DNA of 64,000 bases from assembly GCF_012516315.1 (NCBI RefSeq), contig NZ_CP051185.1, positions 3,413,363 through 3,477,362 on the forward strand, read 5' to 3'. Source of the DNA: Limnospira fusiformis SAG 85.79 (GTDB lineage Bacteria > Cyanobacteriota > Cyanobacteriia > Cyanobacteriales > Microcoleaceae). The notes beneath the pieces were generated by a model that worked only from the letters and a program-made list of their open reading frames with translations, ran no database searches and was not told the DNA's origin. The position numbers were made by a program, and so were the translations under genes. Shown one piece after another: positions 43,672 through 52,471 of the stretch; position 1 is the stretch's first letter, and the number at the start of each line of letters is the position of its first letter.

Positions 43672-43798
43672 CTTTTTTCCCTCCTAGAGACCCCCGCCAT
43701 AGCTGTATTCAGCTGGGCTGGCTGCCGGAGTAAACGAGGGGCAGCACTTAGTTGGCATACGAATAACCATCCTTCTTGTGAATATTTGACTGATACAT

Positions 43799-44932
43799 TT
43801 ACGCGACATTTTTCCGGTTGTTCCCGGACAATGCAACGATAGCACTATTACCCGTTAAGGTAACAGAGGCGGTATCCCGCAAAGCTTTTAGAAAGATTCC
43901 AAAAGCACCGTTCCAGTCCCTAGGTAGAGTGAACCCACACTCCGGACATCGGAACACTTTTGAGCCACCTAGCTGGGAATGCACATGACCACAGTGAGTA
44001 CAGGTTTTGCTGGTGTATTCTTCCGTCACATCTACAACTGTGGTTCCAGTTATTTCCCCTTGATGTCTCAGGGTTAGTTTGAATCGATAATGCGCCCATG
44101 TCAGCATGGCGCGGGCAGTCTTAGACCTGATTAGACGCTTCACCTTGGCAACCATATCGGAAGTCTCGAAGGTGGGCAAAAAAATTAGGCTGTAGTTGTG
44201 AGTCAAGTAGTGAGCAATTTGTTTGTGGGCTTCATCAACTAGATTGCGGATTTTGGTTCTCATTCGTTGAGCCGCTTGCCTCATCCGTCGCCTCCTTGAA
44301 CGACAGGGTTCCTTGGCGATTCGGCTCATTAAATCATCCAAATGTTGACATAGCCTAGTAATGCGTCCAATATCCCCGGAGCCCAATTCCAGAAATCGTG
44401 AACCATCAAACCCGGTTATGAAAGTTCGCACACCCGGGTCTAATGCAATCACGCCAGTAGCGTCAGTTGGGGTAACGGCAACTGGTTCAGGGAAAATCGC
44501 CAACCATCGACCTTTGGTAAACACCAACTGAGTCCCTTGCCCGCAAGTTTTAGGGATGGGTTCGGAAACCATGAAAGTTAATCCTTTCGTGAGTCTTGGA
44601 TACCAACTCCCTGAAGAGAAATTAGCATCGTTAAACTTGATGGCTTGAGAACTATCCCGACAGCTCCTAAACCTTGCGCCAGGACTGGCTGAAAAGGCGA
44701 GATAGGCATCAAAGATAGCATTCTGCCGAATGTGGCAGGGTGTTTCTTTGACCCATGCAGGCAAGTCGCTCTGCATCACTTCGTTGCGTAATTTCAGTTT
44801 GCTTAGTCGTTTACCACTCCGGGATAATGCAATTGCTTGGTTGTAGCAATACCGACAAGCGGCCAACCATTTGCGCCAGACTTGATTTAGCTCGGGGCTG
44901 GGGTAAATCCGGATCTTCTTTGACCTGAGTTT
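43799..44932 (-). CDS. tnpB: TnpB (OrfB_IS605, RuvC-like + zinc ribbon) of the IS607-like element
   Basis: KIRIYPSPELNQVWRKWLAACRYCYNQAI N-terminus; RuvC motifs; C-terminal CTHCG...CPECG zinc finger. No canonical ATG at the expected start, so translation may be coupled to the tnpA frame. Confidence 0.75.
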   Translation of the reverse strand, partial: KLRSKKIRIYPSPELNQVWRKWLAACRYCYNQAIALSRSGKRLSKLKLRNEVMQSDLPAWVKETPCHIRQNAIFDAYLAFSASPGARFRSCRDSSQAIKFNDANFSSGSWYPRLTKGLTFMVSEPIPKTCGQGTQLVFTKGRWLAIFPEPVAVTPTDATGVIALDPGVRTFITGFDGSRFLELGSGDIGRITRLCQHLDDLMSRIAKEPCRSRRRRMRQAAQRMRTKIRNLVDEAHKQIAHYLTHNYSLIFLPTFETSDMVAKVKRLIRSKTARAMLTWAHYRFKLTLRHQGEITGTTVVDVTEEYTSKTCTHCGHVHSQLGGSKVFRCPECGFTLPRDWNGAFGIFLKALRDTASVTLTGNSAIVALSGNNRKNVA

Positions 44933-45480
44933 TGTATTTACTCCGTCCGTATAATCGGGAACTGAAGCAGTGGAGGATGGCGAGGATGTCCTCAACCATT
45001 TCTGGTTCTGGACTGAGACTTGTCTGGTTGAGAACCATGAGTGAACACCTGTTTTGCTCACAGAGCCATCGAAACAAGTCAAATCCCCATATTGCCAATC
45101 AGTCTTTGTGGGCAACGACAACCATGCCGACATCTCCTGACAAATGATGTCCCAGTAAGGCCAGCATTTTCTTTCCCTTGAAGTTGAGCCCGCCTCGGAT
45201 TTCTGAGACGACTTCTGCTTCGGGGTAGAGGTTGGACAGTGCGGCCACCTGTCGGTTGAGGTCTGACTGCTGGGCGCGGCTACTAACTCTGGCATAGATA
45301 ACGACTTTGCGTTTGTCACTGCCTGATTTGGCAGCAGTATATCACTCAACGTTGTATCGTCGTTGCCCAGCGGGGGTTCTGATGGTCTCGATTGAGCCAT
45401 TGTCGTCCCATCTGCGGAGTGTTCTTTCATGGACTCCAAGGATTTGGGTGGCTTCCTTGGGTTTGACATATCTGGCAATA
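44811..45480 (-). pseudogene. tnpA: IS607-type serine recombinase tnpA, disrupted
   Basis: Frame B reads ...RRYNVE*YTAAKSGSDKRKVVIYARVSSRAQQSDLNRQ...VVVAHKD*. It then shifts to the 95-aa ORF RLARFGFDLFRWLCEQ...ILHCFSSRLYGRSKYK (resolvase catalytic Ser in YARVSS). Confidence 0.7.
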
Positions 45481-46079
45481 GGTTTATCCTCAACCCTTCT
45501 CGCTTATTATACTGTATTGCCCTAAAATATTAACCGAATTTGTGATTAAATCATGCTCTCTCCACGCTAAAGCAACGGAGATTCGGGAATGAACCAAAAG
45601 TTCTCACAGGCGTAGTCAAAGCGCCCCTATAGGTAGCCATAAGGCTTCCCTTTACTTTTTTTCGATGTCCCTTTTGCCTCTCGCCGATGAAACCACTTTG
45701 CTACCGACATTTCTGCATTATGCAAGTCTGCCCTCACGGGATGTTAAGCCCCTTTCATTCGGGTCTTAGAGAAGGCAGTTATATGATACCATAGCACCCG
45801 CCGGCGTAAGCACGCCTGTCGCTTTTCCTCCCCGTTAAAGAGACGGGGCTACCAAGCCACCGAGCTTTCAGCGTGTTGAGATCTTAAAACTTCCAGCAGT
45901 AGCCGTGGTGCAACCCACAGAATCAATCGTCCGGTATGATGACTTATCCGCAGTCCCCACAGCGGGTTTAGGCATAACCCAAACAAATCTTACCCAAAAA
46001 TTCCCTGAGCAACTACCCTTGTTTTGACGCTCCCCGCTCTAAATAGACGGGGATTCTTCATTCATAGACTTGCCATAAT

Positions 46080-47099
46080 TTAGCAGGATTTCTCCAACCA
46101 AACTAGAGGGCAAATCTCTGAAGCTTGAGATTTGGTGCGCCCCACCATACTTAATCCTTTTGGCAATATGTTTAAAGCAGCGTTTCTATCACGGAAGTCT
46201 GTATATCTGCAATGAGGGCAGACATGAGTGCGAGTAGATAACGACTTTTCTACCCTTTGGTCACAATTAGAACAATTCTGAGAAGTATTATGGGGTGGAA
46301 CAGCAATAACCAATTTGCCATACTTATCCCCAAAATACCCTCGCCATCGTTTAAAAGTAGCCCATCCTGCATCGGTTATCGACTTGGCTAAACGATGATT
46401 TATAACCATACCTCGAACATTCAAGTCTTCACAAACTACCAAACCGTTAGATTGGACTAAACGGAGTGCCACGCTTTTGACAAACTCTTCTCGCTGTCTG
46501 CTTACTCTTAAATGTTTTTTGGCCTAAGGAGTTAAAGGGGTTATGGTATCTCTAGGATCTAATTTTATGGAGAATTGAACATAATATCCATCTGCTTGTC
46601 TAATAATCCTCACTCGCTTAATCTGTTCAGGCTGATAGTAATTAATATCCCTAGAGCCGATCAGCTTGAGCTTACCAATACCTTTTTGGTCGGTAAAAGT
46701 GATCTGCCGTTTATTGTCTGATAGTTTCCATCCAGAGACTTTATATTCTACCGAACGAGAATGTTTTTTGAATCTTGGATACCCCTTCTTCCCCTTGACC
46801 TGGTTTTGGCAATTCTCGTAAAAACGAGTAATGGCACCGAGAACCCTTTCAACTGTCGTTTGACAAGCATGATAGTTTAAATCCTTGACCAAATCAAACA
46901 CCTTCCGCAGTGCTGTGTTGCATCGAAATAAGTCAACCTTACCTATGCCACGATTGTCCATCCAATAACGAAGCACCTTATTGCCGACAAACTGTGCTGT
47001 CCGTATTGCTTCATCAATGGCTTCGACTTGATGTGGCTTGGGTTGGACTTTGTATTCGATCACCAACATTTTGACACTGTACGCGCTGGTATCAGCCAT
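46080..47099 (-). pseudogene. second tnpB (IS605/IS1341-type), internally deleted (RuvC-I region missing) and split
   Basis: The 191-aa N-terminal part (MLVIEYKVQPKP...) and the 130-aa C-terminal part (VVCEDLNVRGM...NTSQNCSNCDQ...HVCPHCRYT) are only 52 bp apart, so ~70 aa including the GIDxG motif are absent. A CGCGGGTT-AA-AACCCGCG hairpin at 47118..47140 resembles an IS200/605 end structure. Confidence 0.7.
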
Positions 47100-47409
47100 T
47101 ATAGCCTAAAAAATAAACGCGGGTTAAAACCCGCGAGTCGCCCTAACCCTCCCTTGAAAGACGAGGGCTTGCGGGCATCCCGTGTGATTTTCGTCAGATC
47201 CATAGCCAAAATTTTGGTGAAAATTTCTTGATTTCCTCCACAAGATCTTCACAATCTCATGGTTTGATGAGAATTAACTACTTTAGTAAACCGCCAGCAC
47301 CCCTTTTATAAAATCGCTGGCCTATATGATCAAAGCATAGCCTGAGTCCATCGGACTTGGGCTATGTTGTCTGCGAGGAAAAAGTTGGTTTTTGCCGGGG
47401 CGGGTTTAT

Positions 47410-48051
47410 TTACAGTTCCAGAACAGCAACCACTAGCCTGTAACATAGAAGCTGATCATCAGAATTCCGCTTTTTCCAAGGTTGAGAAAGGCTAAGAACC
47501 ACCAGACATTCAGGACTTAAAATATAGTCATTGTCTAGTTTAGTACAAAGCTCTGGATCAGTCACGTTTAAGACCAAGCTGTTACCGCCCTCTAAAGGAA
47601 TTTCCCCTTTCCACTTCCCGTAATTATTGCACCAAGTTTTAAACCCGTCAACCTTGACTATTTGTAATGTACGTCTTTGATGGCGAGGCAATGAAGATAT
47701 GTATGAATAGGGGATAGCATTCAGCCAATCATGACAATGACTATGAATAATTTCATCATCACAATAACAAACTACGTCCATAGGGCTAACTCTGCCAATG
47801 TGCTTCCAGGAACCCCTTAAAATCAGTCTATTCTCGTATTCATATCCATTTCCTGTATCACTTAGAGGTATATCAACGATATCCAGAGGTTGGATAAGCC
47901 TTCCATTAATCTGAGACATATTTACCGGAATGCGACCATCATCCAATCTAGTCACAGGACGAACCCATTTACCTGTAGATATTTCTATCCCAGCAATACA
48001 ACGGTCATTGTTCTTCCGAGAATTAGCAAGACAAATTAATTTTGACATCAT
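47410..48051 (-). CDS. hypothetical Cys/His-rich protein (N-terminal MMSKLICLANSRKNNDRCIAG)
   Basis: 213-aa ORF, 9 bp downstream of the DUF488 gene. Contains a CYCDDEIIHSHCHDW cluster. Confidence 0.5.
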   Translation of the reverse strand: MMSKLICLANSRKNNDRCIAGIEISTGKWVRPVTRLDDGRIPVNMSQINGRLIQPLDIVDIPLSDTGNGYEYENRLILRGSWKHIGRVSPMDVVCYCDDEIIHSHCHDWLNAIPYSYISSLPRHQRRTLQIVKVDGFKTWCNNYGKWKGEIPLEGGNSLVLNVTDPELCTKLDNDYILSPECLVVLSLSQPWKKRNSDDQLLCYRLVVAVLEL

Positions 48052-48060
48052 CCTTACGAC

Positions 48061-48540
48061 TTATAGGTGATGAATGTTTATATTTCCCCATTTTTGGTTT
48101 AAGTATTCAGCAACTAAGCGACGATGACAGTTATGAGGTTTAGCCTCACTGCAAAGCAAACAGGCTCCATGAGCTAAATCTGGGGACAGTTTTTTTTCGA
48201 TTTGACGCTCCTCCATCAGCGTTAAAAATTTCTGCTCGTATATCGACCAATCTCCTTTTTTCTTTTTGTACTCATCAAGAATATCTTTGGTGGGAGCCAA
48301 GTCTAAAATATGCACATAATCAATATCGTTGATAGTTTTCAAGAAATACTCTAAGTCGGCTCTTTTAGCGAATCCCGCCAATTGAGATACGTTATTTAGG
48401 CGAGTGTCTATAACTGTCTTAACACCTGCTTTTTTAAGAGTTTCAAAGAAATTTTGTGCGCTCTTTTTAGTGAAACCTATGGTGAATAAATCAACCTTAT
48501 TTTTCATGGCTATTATCCGGTTCGACATAAGCAATCTCAT
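48061..48540 (-). CDS. DUF488 family protein
   Basis: DLFTIGFTKKSAQNFFETLKKAGVKTVIDTRLNN ... LLCSEAKPHNCHRRLVAEYL are both DUF488 hallmarks. Confidence 0.65.
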   Translation of the reverse strand: MRLLMSNRIIAMKNKVDLFTIGFTKKSAQNFFETLKKAGVKTVIDTRLNNVSQLAGFAKRADLEYFLKTINDIDYVHILDLAPTKDILDEYKKKKGDWSIYEQKFLTLMEERQIEKKLSPDLAHGACLLCSEAKPHNCHRRLVAEYLNQKWGNINIHHL

Positions 48541-49129
48541 CCCCCTGAAGTCGATAAGCTTGGCTCAAGCATTCTTCTCTTGTCGGTAAAATTTGGGGGG
48601 AAAATAGGGAAAGCTGAACTTCTTGTGAATCGCCAAAATCCCTAAAACCATGCTTGACAAGCATTCTATCTTCCAAATGCTCATGAGATTCTAAATCACC
48701 ATTCTTGAGGATGTGATTTATAGGGATATCCAAATCCCGTAAGTGCTGACAGACCAAGATGGCTCTGTGACAGGTTAATGGATCTTTTTCAGCACACATC
48801 AGCGAAATCTTATGTTTTTTCAAACCTTTCTGAAGTCGCTTAATTCCTTGGTGAAACGCATCTGTGAGGGCAATTCTTTCATATACGGCTTTACCATTGA
48901 TATAGCAGTCGGGGTTACTAGGTCTTGCACCCAGTTCCCGTCCCAGAAAAACATATTGAATTCCCTCTTTAGCGAGAAACTCTTGTAGGGATGAGCGATT
49001 GAAATGTGACAAGAATCGGCTGTAGGGATGTGAACGTACATCAGCAACAGCGGTTACTTGATGCTTTTGGAGCAGGGAGATAAAAGCATCTATCTCATGA
49101 TTAGAGTGACCGATACTGAATAACTCCAT
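48497..49129 (-). CDS. DUF488 family protein (long form with C-terminal extension)
   Basis: MELFSIGHSNHEIDAFISLLQKHQVTAVADVRSHPYSR ... LMCAEKDPLTCHRAILVCQHL. Overlaps the next gene by 44 nt. Confidence 0.65.
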   Translation of the reverse strand: MELFSIGHSNHEIDAFISLLQKHQVTAVADVRSHPYSRFLSHFNRSSLQEFLAKEGIQYVFLGRELGARPSNPDCYINGKAVYERIALTDAFHQGIKRLQKGLKKHKISLMCAEKDPLTCHRAILVCQHLRDLDIPINHILKNGDLESHEHLEDRMLVKHGFRDFGDSQEVQLSLFSPQILPTREECLSQAYRLQGDEIAYVEPDNSHEK

Positions 49130-49315
49130 GCTGCTCCTCTGTTGTTACCTAGTCATACCATCTTATATAGTAGGGTTCATCCAGGTATATGAACCGTGGT
49201 TATTATGATAGTACAGACGCGCTTGGCTTGTCAATCTTAACCAGTTTCCCAATCAGGTAGAGGGGGGATATCTAACTATTCATCAGACAAGGGCAACTCA
49301 GCACAACTGCGATCG

Positions 49316-49390
49316 CCCTATCCCATAACCCCTATGCCATAGGCCATAACCCATAACCCCTATCCCATAACCCCTATGCCATAGGCCAAT
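49316..49390. repeat. short tandem repeat (CCCATAA / CCCCTAT[C/G]CCATAGG units)
   Basis: cccataacccctatgccataggccataacccataacccctatcccataacccctatgccatagg; STRR-like heptamer-based repeats. Confidence 0.6.
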
Positions 49391-49557
49391 TATCCCCCGG
49401 ATTAGCTTCCCAGGGAAAAGCGATCGCTTCTGCAAACATTAACGGGGAGGTGGAGGCGAAAATTGCCCCCAATGTATTCGCACACGCAGCAGGATTTTGG
49501 CACTGGGGAGTTGATAACCCGTAACTACCCCAACGCCCAGGGCTATAATTATCCCGA

Positions 49558-50023
49558 TCAACCCCCGATCGCCACAAACGCAGCCCAGTAGTAAGGAGAT
49601 GAAAAAGGTTGACTCTCGGATTTTTTGCCCCATTGCAAGGTAAATTTCATCTGCTCCTGCCATTTCGGTGCAATCGCCGGACAACTATCAATCCAGTCTA
49701 ACAAATTTTGCACTGTGGCTTCTCGCAGCCATTTCTGAGTCTGCTGCAACGCCGGAGCCACTGATGAATTAGGCTGCTGGTGGAGAATTTCATAAAAGCG
49801 AATCATTAAGATGGCAGTGGATAAATCATGTACACTCCACAGGGAGCAGACCACATTAGCAGAACCCGCCAAAAGAAATCCACTGGCTAAACTGATATAT
49901 TCATCGGTTTGGTCAACGGCGACTTGTCCAGTTTCAGAGGCGGAAAGGGTTACAAGGCGGCAGTTGCTCAGGTTCAGTTGGGTGATGATTTGTTCTAGGG
50001 GATTGGTGACAACTTAAGGCTAG
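49558..50023 (-). pseudogene. C-terminal fragment of a CHAT-domain (caspase-like) protease, N-terminus deleted
   Basis: Reads VVTNPLEQIITQLNLSNCRLVTLSASETGQVAVDQ...LLAGSANVVCSLWSVHDLSTAILMIRFYE...SPYYWAAFVAIGG. These are CHAT C-terminal signatures, but Ser replaces the usual catalytic Cys in SAC-E-T. Confidence 0.65.
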
Positions 50024-50473
50024 AGTGTAATTGTCAAGCTACTTTCGACAGCAGTTTGATGGAATGAGTCGTCCTCGCAAAAACAACCCAGATCATACTC
50101 GCCGCCACAATATGCCAGGGCCAAGTAGCGACGCGATTAAAGCCCACCTGAGCGACTTGTTGAGACCTGTGGTTCACGAGCAATTGAAATACTATCGCCA
50201 GTTGGGGTTGCGCTAACGAATTGTGGGGCTTCCTCTAATGGTGGCAGCAGTGTTGAGCCTGTTATGGCCTCAAAATGTGGGATCTCAAACCTTTCCATCC
50301 AAACCTCTAGCAACCTCTGAAAAAAACTGGGAGTTCCAACCAAGAAACCCCAGCTTTTTCCTTGTCTTCAAAAATGTGATCGCCCTGATCTGTAGTCTGT
50401 CTGAAACGTCCCTGCATCATGACCCAGCCTACTATTGATCACCATGACCCACAGGAAGCCATATCTGCGCAAA

Positions 50474-52471
50474 CTAGCGAATGTACTTTTTAAGAATACT
50501 ATTGCGATCGGAATGGCGGAGTTTACGCAACGCTTTAGCCTCAATTTGGCGAATGCGTTCGCGAGTCACATTAAAAATTTTGCCGATTTCTTCAAGAGTT
50601 TTCATCCGCCCATCATCGAGCCCGTAACGAAGTCGCAGGATATCCCGTTCACTGGGGCTTAATGTATCTAAGACACTTTCAAGATCTTCGCGCAACAACT
50701 TTTTAGAGACTTGAGCTTCAGGGGTTTCACCATCAGATTCAATGAAATCCCCCGGCTCTGGCTCTTCGGTAGGTGGGGGCGGTTCCTCAACTACAGAGGA
50801 GGATTCCAACTGTTCCGCATACTCTATATATGCTCCTCCCAATGACCTTAAAACCTGAGCCGTTACCCGGGCAAAAGCGATCGCATTCCCCTGAACTTCC
50901 CCTTCCCCTAACTGTTGCGGATTTCTCAAAATCGCCCCAAAATCTTCTACCGCAAAGCCCAAATTCCTCGCCACATAACCAGAAATCTCATCAATCACCC
51001 TCACCGTCTCATCCACCGGCATCAACTCTAACAATAACTCCCGGACTCCCGGCATAAAATCATATTGCACCAACTCTGGGTCAGTATCGATATTAATCTC
51101 CGATATCGGCTGCAATAACCCACCCAAAAACACCTCCGCTACATGGACTGGCAACGACTCTTTTAACAAATTTTCCTGAATCAACCGCACCACAGGTAAG
51201 GTAATCACAGGGGCTGCCGCCAACAACCCGGCTAATTTCCGCCCTACCCGAGAAGCCGTTGCCCGAAACCCGTTTACCCGCTTTTCCGCCGTCAATTCTC
51301 CCCCAGAATTGGGTCTGCGCCTCCGTCCTTGATGTTCTGCACACTTAAATAGATATCCTGCCGCCCAAACTTTACCTTTCCCCGCCAATAATCGCGCCCA
51401 AGTCCCTACGGATTCCGGTTCTAAGGTAAAAATCGGCACTTTCACCACCGAATGAGCCACTTCCTCATCCCACCACAAGGGGAATTCATCAACCTTTAAA
51501 TTCTGATTCCAATCTCCGGGATTGAGTCCCTGTAACCTCACCAACGCTTCCCAACCTAAACCGCTTCTTTTCCACATCCATTCAGGCAGCATCTGCAAAA
51601 TAGCCATCGACCCCCGTTTCGCCCACAGGTCTAAAATGGGAGTCATTTTCCCCTCTCGCCACACTTTCGAGACACAATCACTCACCACAATCACTAACCG
51701 TCGCCCAGTGGGGTCGATTAATTCCTTGGGACTGCGAGGGGCTTGATGTTTCGCCGTTGCCCCAATCCCCCGCCGAATTTTGACCGCTTCCGGGTTATCG
51801 GTGAGCAAACTCCAAACTCGGACATCTCGGAAAATTCCATAGTTCTTGAGGAGTTTTTCTAAGTCTCGCAGGGTATGCCGCCACAGCAACATCGAGAGGG
51901 AATCCTCAATCACTAAATCTAAGTCTAACCAAGGTTCTAGGCGAGGTTTTAAAACCGGAATCCAAATCCCTTGGCTGGCAATTTGTTCGCTAGTGGCGAC
52001 TTCATCAATCACCCAATCTCGTCCCCCAGAAACTCGACGCATCAGGGGTTTTAAGGCTCTGGCTAAGGTCAGAGGTTCCCGGAGTGAGGGGGCATCGGAA
52101 ACTCGAATGGGTAAACCCCCTCCACCCGCAGCGGTTTGACTGGGTTCCGGTTTAGGGACAATTTCCCCTTGGGGCGGTTGGGGGGTTGCTGGGGTAGCAG
52201 GGGCAGGAGGTTGGTTTTCTGGGAGATTCTCTGGAGGGGTTGTGGCGGAATCCTCTGGGGTAGGGGGTTGAGGGGCTGGTTCTGTGGGCGGTTGGGATGA
52301 ACTGCTGCTGTCGGTGGGGGGTTCAGCCCCAGGAGAAGCACTGGCTTCCTCTGGGGGGGTTACAGATTCAGAATATTGGTCAATGTGGCAAGCCAGCCAA
52401 AAGACATCCGCAATATCTTGGGCGGAGAGTTGAAATTCCTGTTGTAAGGCTTGAACCAAGTCGGGATTCAT
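50474..52471 (-). CDS. MoxR-associated protein: Pro-rich N-terminal linker, possible vWA-like middle region, C-terminal sigma-70 region 3.2-4 module
   Basis: The last ~95 aa ([92 protein letters not shown]) are near-consensus group 1/2 sigma region 3.2 + 4.2. The start ATG overlaps the MoxR stop (ATGA). Confidence 0.6.

Follow-up and report, generated by a model that had tools for sequence, protein, structure and literature searches.

A 64,000-nucleotide stretch of the genome of Limnospira fusiformis SAG 85.79 (contig NZ_CP051185.1, positions 3,413,363 to 3,477,362; hereafter the window) carries, at positions 47410-49129, a real and ordinary copy of PDC-M45, a candidate system that has already been catalogued. 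The cassette consists of three genes, here called B, C and A in the order in which they are read, which encode two different DUF488 proteins and a dual OB-fold (DuOB) protein. The three genes form a single evolutionary unit that spans several phyla. The cassette is read here as a phosphate-processing module that is directed at DNA ends or single-stranded DNA (ssDNA) and that most likely serves in defense against invading DNA, a reading to which a probability of roughly 0.55 is given. A role in DNA repair is the main rival. A preliminary description, made from the sequence alone, had proposed that the DUF488 pair and a 213-amino-acid (aa) partner form one unit in an accessory or conflict neighborhood, and this proposal is strongly supported by the comparisons reported below.

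Gene Content and Family Membership

Gene B (48497-49129) encodes a DUF488 enzyme of 210 aa whose C-terminal tail of about 75 aa is conserved, gene C (48061-48507) encodes a 148-aa DUF488-N3a enzyme, and gene A (47410-48051) encodes the 213-aa DuOB protein. All three genes are intact, on the minus strand and arranged head to tail. The preliminary description had assigned 159 aa to the second DUF488 protein and an overlap of 44 nt to the two DUF488 genes. Both figures result from taking the longest open reading frame (ORF) for gene C (48061-48540, 159 aa); the start lies at M12 of this frame (48507) in orthologues and in the genes called for eight Limnospira/Arthrospira genomes, so that the protein has 148 aa and the overlap is 11 nt (ATGAAAAATAA). 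The other two protein sizes, 210 and 213 aa, were borne out, and the coordinates agree with the reported position of the 213-aa gene 9 bp after gene C on the same strand. The short overlap suggests that B and C may be translationally coupled.

Each protein matches a profile of PADLOC-DB. Gene B matches PDC-M45B (E value of 1.3e-74), gene C matches PDC-M45C (1.6e-71) and gene A matches PDC-M45A (1.6e-23, with the match covering residues 3-212 of 213). PDC-M45 is defined by co-located matches to the M45A, M45B and M45C profiles, and in the window these matches are contiguous and on one strand. The makeup is the same as that of PDC-M45, one DuOB and two different DUF488 proteins with full-length matches to all three profiles, but the gene order is B-C-A here and in most cyanobacterial loci and A-B-C in proteobacterial and plasmid instances. 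The M45A match (2e-23) is also far weaker than those of B and C (about 1e-72), because the DuOB protein diverges fast. The novelty that the preliminary description had implied is lost, since all three genes match the PADLOC PDC-M45 profile sets and Pfam already holds both DuOB and DUF488-N3a; the locus can be detected automatically by PADLOC and Pfam, and the Limnospira copy has nothing unusual. The PDC systems are 145 cassettes that were chosen for instances embedded in BREX, DISARM or type I restriction-modification loci, and PDC-M45 is listed among them as the three-family cassette CAS_00153 with a count of 68 (Payne et al. 2024, bioRxiv 10.1101/2024.01.29.577857).

The Pfam models separate the two DUF488 proteins. 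Both are members of DUF488 (PF04343, gathering threshold 22.2 bits), with 89 bits for B and 89.9 bits for C (E value of 2.5e-25 for C, and about 1e-25 for both), and the view that they are two different DUF488 paralogues is confirmed. Gene C is also a member of DUF488-N3a (PF22751, "Active DUF488-N3 subclade", threshold 27 bits) at 39.2 bits, and gene B at 16.9 bits is not. Gene A is a full-length member of DuOB (PF22557, "Dual OB-containing domain", threshold 27 bits) with an E value of 1e-34. None of the three proteins matched in a search of NCBIfam. Full-text literature searches on DuOB and on PDC-M45 returned nothing useful, and searches on DUF488 and DUF4326 found no functional study.

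Conservation and Linkage of the Three Genes

DuOB relatives were sought with a single peptide pattern in one genome per GTDB species, so that the counts are a lower bound; at least 299 of the 185,579 species-representative genomes carry one. Linkage was counted in the best 80 loci with a DuOB relative. All three genes are present in 76 of these, and in 75 they are adjacent, on one strand and in the order B-C-A. One of the remaining four loci is cut by a contig end and the other three have DuOB without DUF488 genes. Most of the 80 loci are from Cyanobacteria, with others from Planctomycetota, Phycisphaerae, Pirellulales, Victivallales and a deltaproteobacterium. The reverse search from gene B homologues found gene C and DuOB in three of three loci, one of which (L093) has a gene C that had not been called and was recovered. 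The comparison of neighborhoods across genomes, a check that had been proposed at the outset, thus found the 213-aa partner neither absent from nor unlinked in the relatives.

The order A-B-C is found on the Allochromatium tepidum plasmid pAt1 (locus L091, 5965-7689) and on two IMG/VR contigs. A variant on the Citrobacter freundii plasmid pLNU-11 (locus L089, 4995-6662) has DuOB, a C-type DUF488 gene and then a DUF4326 gene, which replaces the B-type DUF488 gene; it is adjoined by a group II intron reverse transcriptase.

B and C are distinct orthologous groups, each scoring about 250 bits to its own group and about 25 bits to the other. The earlier remark that DUF488 genes are seldom duplicated in tandem was therefore wrongly framed, as two distinct orthologous groups travel with a third gene. 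Over 75 loci, C has a median identity of 73% to its counterpart in the window, B one of 56% and A one of 41%; C is the most conserved by median and A is the least conserved of the three in 74 of the 75 loci. A fourth conserved gene was not found across 30 dereplicated loci (137 neighboring ORFs, 220 Pfam families). In 21 loci of the Microcoleus/Oscillatoriales clade, DuOB is followed after about 100 bp by an ORF of the same orientation; the example at L063:8788-9984 has about 398 aa, a coiled-coil-like middle and, at the C-terminus, a ...RNRAAHHEP... motif that recalls HEPN/Abi RNases, with no Pfam match. This ORF could be a fourth component specific to the clade, or a neighbor that has nothing to do with the cassette.

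A phage origin of the cassette was considered and rejected. None of the 50,697 phage records of INPHARED matched, three cassette matches were found among the 2.9 million viral contigs of IMG/VR, and PHROGs gave weak DUF488-type matches and none for DuOB. The cassette is also rare on plasmids (7 records).

The DUF488 Enzymes

The two DUF488 proteins keep related motifs. Gene B has D-V-R-S followed by L-M-C-A-E-K-D-P-x2-C-H-R, and gene C has D-T-R-L-N-N-x-S-Q-L followed by L-L-C-S-E-x2-P-x2-C-H-R; among orthologues of C, the segments DTRLNN.SQL.GF and LLCSE..P..CHRRL are invariant or nearly so. The invariant C-x-E...C-H-R motif is kept in both proteins. Since every invariant residue of active-site type is retained in B and in C, the two do not form an enzyme/pseudo-enzyme pair, and both are apparently active with neither being a dead paralogue.

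The structure model of B resembles cysteine phosphatases, including laforin, SEX4, KAP, archaeal protein tyrosine phosphatases (PTPs), PRL, PTPMT1 and the baculovirus RNA 5'-phosphatase, and it also resembles tetrapyrrole and diphthine methylases. Gene B is accordingly modeled as a cysteine phosphatase fold of the PTP or dual-specificity phosphatase (DSP) kind, with the conserved cysteine at the strand-loop-helix position of the predicted model. The likeness has limits, as sequence identity between gene B and cysteine-dependent dual-specificity and polynucleotide phosphatases is 8-18%, and the B motif is C-x-E-x5-C-H-R where laforin, SEX4, the baculovirus RNA 5'-phosphatase and PIR1 have an HC-x5-R P-loop. 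The combined likeness to methylases and phosphatases agrees with the placement of DUF488, RapZ-C and DUF4326 in a rhodanese-phosphatase superfamily, which is reportedly due to Burroughs and Aravind in 2023. The same work is said to put the tetrapyrrole and diphthine methylases into this superfamily as well, to have introduced DuOB and the DUF488-N3 clade, and to have predicted roles for the clade in processing DNA ends during conflicts between virus and host; the Pfam names DUF488-N3a (gene C) and DuOB (gene A) presumably go back to it. Gene B differs from that clade in that it matches the general DUF488 model only and no N3 subclade.

The preliminary description had noted a C-terminal extension on the 210-aa protein, and the extension is kept in orthologues with defined motifs (LExH..LE.RLL, QLSLF and AY..QG..IAYVE). 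This tail (about residues 135-205) is modeled with lower confidence as two helices and short strands, and it may be a partner-binding element. Gene B alone has more than 5,000 clusters at 90% identity (E value of at most 1e-10). DUF4326, the family that takes the place of B on pLNU-11, was proposed by Aravind's group to process terminal ribose-linked phosphates of ADP-ribose (PMC9503650).

The DuOB Protein

The structure model of the 213-aa protein shows two OB barrels with confidence, and its best structural likeness is to ssDNA binders and telomere-end binders. The preliminary description had seen in this protein a metal-binding-like cluster (CYCDDEIIHSHCHDW) and had suggested structure prediction as a check; the prediction did yield a defined fold, a tandem OB fold and not that of a metal-cluster protein. 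An alignment of 30 homologues rules out the Cys/His metal-cluster identity, as the cluster is not conserved: C95, H102, H104, C105 and H106 vary, some being confined to the genus, and Y96 alone in the segment is nearly invariant. The positions that are invariant among the 30 homologues are N10, S11, K13, R17, C18, A20, G21, I22, W29, R31, P32, E73, N74, R126, R127, T128, L129, Q130, T164, D165, S187, P191, C203 and E212. Four cysteines (C7, C18, C182 and C203) are invariant or nearly so, unlike the cluster that had been flagged.

The model thus places gene A with the tandem-OB-fold proteins, and A is likely the subunit that binds ssDNA or DNA ends. It resembles RPA, SSB and the telomere-end-binding OB proteins in having two tandem OB barrels, and its best structural matches are ssDNA binders, but it has no sequence similarity to any solved structure (a sequence search found none for DuOB), and its DNA binding is predicted from the model. 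It also differs from passive OB binders in an unusually rich set of conserved polar residues (N10, S11, K13, R17, R31, E73, N74, R126, R127, T128, Q130, T164, D165 and E212).

The DuOB family comprises about 1,700 clusters at 50% identity (E value of at most 1e-10), and its relatives resemble RecQ accessory domains in being fused to RecQ, RQC and HRDC. In four loci, from Victivallales, a deltaproteobacterium and unclassified MAGs (metagenome-assembled genomes), a complete RecQ helicase has DuOB as its N-terminal part, and B and C remain in place ahead of the fusion gene (L028:4201-7143, L029:6336-9254, L034:7902-10838 and L046:7986-10619). A fifth fusion, in a MAG of the Chitinispirillaceae (L041:8001-10907), has no DUF488 genes within 8 kb. 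The fusions contain DEAD, Helicase_C, RecQ_Zn_bind and HRDC domains, usually also RQC, and in several copies HTH_40; further DuOB relatives carry RQC and/or HRDC only. Other architectures, found among the proteins P0129, P0122, P0127 and P0130, join DuOB to a Ser/Thr protein kinase and a DUF559 or restriction-endonuclease-like domain (848 aa) or to a WD40 beta-propeller (about 565-586 aa). This variety suggests that DuOB may be a reusable sensor or adaptor module.

Genomic Context

In the window, a split tnpB remnant (46080-47099) borders the cassette on one side and a conflict module of VMAP-C, MoxR-AAA and TPR-CHAT genes on the other. The trio had been placed between a dead tnpB and a CHAT/MoxR module, which is what the window contains, but the name "insertion sequence (IS)-flanked island" holds on one side only, as an IS remnant is present there and the other side is the VMAP-C/MoxR/CHAT module. 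At least eight NCBI assemblies contain the exact DuOB sequence.

Elsewhere the neighbors vary. On pAt1, a type III CRISPR-Cas locus surrounds the cassette, which has csx16/cas1 on one side and csm6 on the other; a TnpB gene is close by. Another cassette adjoins a phage-type integrase in a peptidase U32 gene that is split, and in two loci from the search with gene B homologues the cassettes are next to HicAB, ParE and PIN toxin-antitoxin (TA) genes. Scattered neighbors of defense type include PD-T4-6, viperin, AriA and a caspase-like protein. Housekeeping genes flank the cassette in the Microcoleus clade.

Two solo DuOB genes (L027:1328-3154 and L040:5456-7273) stand, in divergent orientation, beside a gene for a TPR-CHAT protein of about 605 aa and have no DUF488 genes within 8 kb; an AAA_21/RloB pair is also near the one in L027. 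The trio in the window likewise follows a TPR-CHAT gene, which may be a coincidence or a recurring association.

Proposed Function

In the mechanism proposed here, DuOB would attach to ssDNA or to DNA ends, either by itself or where a RecQ-type helicase has unwound the substrate, and would bring in B and C as a pair of cysteine phosphotransfer enzymes. The pair would remove or transfer phosphate-linked groups at nucleic-acid termini, and the bound DNA would thereby be barred from ligation, extension or packaging. The fast-diverging DuOB would be the specificity or sensor part and the slowly evolving B and C the effectors. A DNA-directed function is suggested by OB folds like those of ssDNA and telomere-end binders together with the fusions of DuOB to RecQ and RQC/HRDC. 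Phosphate chemistry is suggested by the conserved cysteine at the strand-loop-helix position and by the replacement of B with DUF4326 on the Citrobacter plasmid. Behavior like that of a defense system is suggested by the embedding in a CRISPR locus, the integrase, TA and AAA_21-RloB neighbors, the adjacency to VMAP/MoxR/CHAT, the near-absence from viruses and the divergence of DuOB.

The biological role, defense against phages or plasmids, is the least secure step of this proposal. An anti-phage role is plausible, given the way in which PDC-M45 was selected, the several instances embedded in defense loci, the variable flanks and the patchy distribution. Several points weigh against it. The cassette has a fixed chromosomal site with at least 99% identity in all eight Limnospira/Arthrospira genomes inspected, which fits housekeeping or repair, and the neighborhoods are only modestly rich in defense and TA genes. 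A heteromer of B and C and a complex of these with DuOB are assumed. To our knowledge, no substrate has been reported for any DUF488 protein, and the Pfam entry is that of a domain of unknown function. Sequence searches found no solved DUF488 structure, with none matching B and only chance-level matches for C. The PDC systems are explicitly termed untested by their own authors (Payne et al. 2024).

The fixed site is one of the features that make repair a serious, if clearly less probable, explanation. Here DuOB, with RecQ in some lineages, would recognize ssDNA gaps or damaged ends and not foreign DNA, and B and C would clean blocked termini (3'-phosphate, 3'-phosphoglycolate or adducted ends) in housekeeping or accessory repair. 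RecQ, RQC and HRDC, to which DuOB is fused, are classical modules of repair and recombination, B and C are well conserved (median identity of 56-73% across cyanobacteria), and the Microcoleus clade has the housekeeping flanks described above. A repair role fits less well with the patchy distribution (at least 299 of 185,579 species representatives by the single peptide pattern), with variable flanks that often hold integrase, TA or defense genes, with the rapid divergence of the binding subunit, and with the original choice of PDC-M45 for its embedding in BREX, DISARM or restriction-modification systems.

Two further explanations are less likely than repair or defense. The resemblance of the B model to RNA 5'-phosphatases and to a capping-enzyme triphosphatase, along with the proposal that the sister family DUF4326 processes ribose-linked phosphates of ADP-ribose (PMC9503650), would suit a target among RNA, NAD or ADP-ribose. 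B and C would then process ribose-linked phosphates (for example 2'/3'-phosphate RNA ends, ADP-ribose-1''-phosphate or signaling nucleotides) and DuOB would bind RNA or tRNA, making the cassette a module that repairs RNA or degrades nucleotide signals; the instance between csx16 and csm6 also belongs here, as type III CRISPR uses cyclic-oligoadenylate signals. This is improbable, as the recurrent DuOB fusions are to the DNA helicase modules RecQ, RQC and HRDC, one is to a DUF559 or restriction-endonuclease-like domain, and no RNA-specific module was seen among them. A TA-like addiction role, in which one DUF488 protein is toxic, its paralogue or DuOB neutralizes it and an inverted repeat upstream of gene B is an autoregulatory operator, is very improbable. 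It would account for the compact overlapping genes, the frequent TA neighbors and the repeat at the predicted transcription start, but a Pfam search found no HTH, RHH or AbrB domain in A, B or C, 73 other upstream regions do not share the repeat, both enzymes keep all of their active-site residues, and three genes with a RecQ fusion are unlike known TA systems. A type II TA module with an operator was rejected for want of an autoregulatory DNA-binding antitoxin domain and of a conserved operator repeat.

Within the defense reading, a bolder version is offered tentatively and is itself unlikely: that PDC-M45 is a new anti-phage or anti-plasmid system in which a quickly evolving tandem-OB sensor of free ssDNA or DNA ends, on foreign DNA that is invading or replicating, directs heteromeric cysteine phosphotransferases to alter the terminal phosphate, by removing a 5'-phosphate or by adding or removing an adduct of the ribose-phosphate type. 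If true, the immune effect would come from modifying DNA ends, a biochemistry that no defense system has yet been shown to use, and the large DUF488 family would have its first function. If PDC-M45 were shown to defend against phages, a DNA-end-processing mechanism would be added to bacterial immunity. The cassette also offers a clean genetic context for DUF488 activity, with two active-looking paralogues, an OB-fold partner and RecQ fusions that point to DNA.

Putative Promoter, Inverted Repeat and Possible Terminator

The best sigma-70-like site in 47200-49600, identified by consensus match, is TTGACA-N18-TATCAT at 49205-49234 on the minus strand, upstream of gene B, with 11 of 12 consensus matches. 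In intact relatives, the site is about 430 bp downstream of the CHAT gene, a distance from which it follows that the trio is probably under its own promoter and transcribed independently of the upstream CHAT gene.

The inverted repeat GGTTCAT-N8-ATGAACC that had been noted about 45 bp upstream of the first gene is present at 49174-49195 and is unique in the window. It begins 10 nt after the -10 hexamer and 45 bp from the gene B ATG at 49129, a position that would suit an operator or a 5' hairpin. Its earlier designation as a candidate operator is unsupported and was rejected. The repeat is absent upstream of the 73 other orthologous operons that were compared, where its GTTCAT motif is not conserved either, and it is not conserved outside the genus. 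A repeat with 7-bp arms arises by chance in 13% of shuffled 160-bp upstream regions, and the pattern with two mismatches allowed has matches in 25 of 100 shuffles of the window. Inverted repeats do occur in 30 of 74 upstream regions, compared with 13% in the shuffles, but this count is mostly one Microcoleus-clade hairpin counted repeatedly. The fold of the leader RNA is not unusually stable (z of 0.33), and the cassette encodes no regulator.

A short hairpin at 47345-47363, about 50 nt past the stop codon of gene A, is a possible but weak candidate for the operon terminator. The scan listed it on the plus strand; on the minus strand the stem is the same and no clear U tract is present. An Rfam search found no RNA element in the window. 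A tandem array of 14-bp units (CCCTATCCCATAAC, about 4.9 copies with a 7-bp sub-period) lies at 49316-49383, between the fragment of CHAT and the trio's putative promoter, and a HIP1 site (GCGATCGC) adjoins it.

Conflict Module and Mobile Elements Near the Cassette

The TPR-CHAT gene of the VMAP/MoxR system encodes 1386-1618 aa in other strains and is broken in the window (49558-52471). A 665-aa ORF (50474-52471) ends in a Sigma70 region-4 domain, a 104-aa fragment of the CHAT C-terminus lies at 49558-49872, and the stretch from about 49600/50000 to 50775 has no homology to intact TPR-CHAT alleles. The VMAP/MoxR/CHAT module is 94-97% identical between strains, compared with at least 99% for its flanks. 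The region has the look of a conflict locus that is hypervariable and has been rearranged, and one of its ORFs looks chimeric.

Positions 43792-45555 hold a TnpB-only IS element (about 1.76 kb). Its 564-aa ORF (43799-45493) has HTH_OrfB_IS605 and Cas12f1-like TNB domains. The element is also present in three Limnospira/Arthrospira genomes (L081, L087 and L088) and is precisely absent from three others (L082-L084, junction 45556/43791). This pattern of presence and precise absence points to a recent insertion polymorphism, so that the element may still be mobile.

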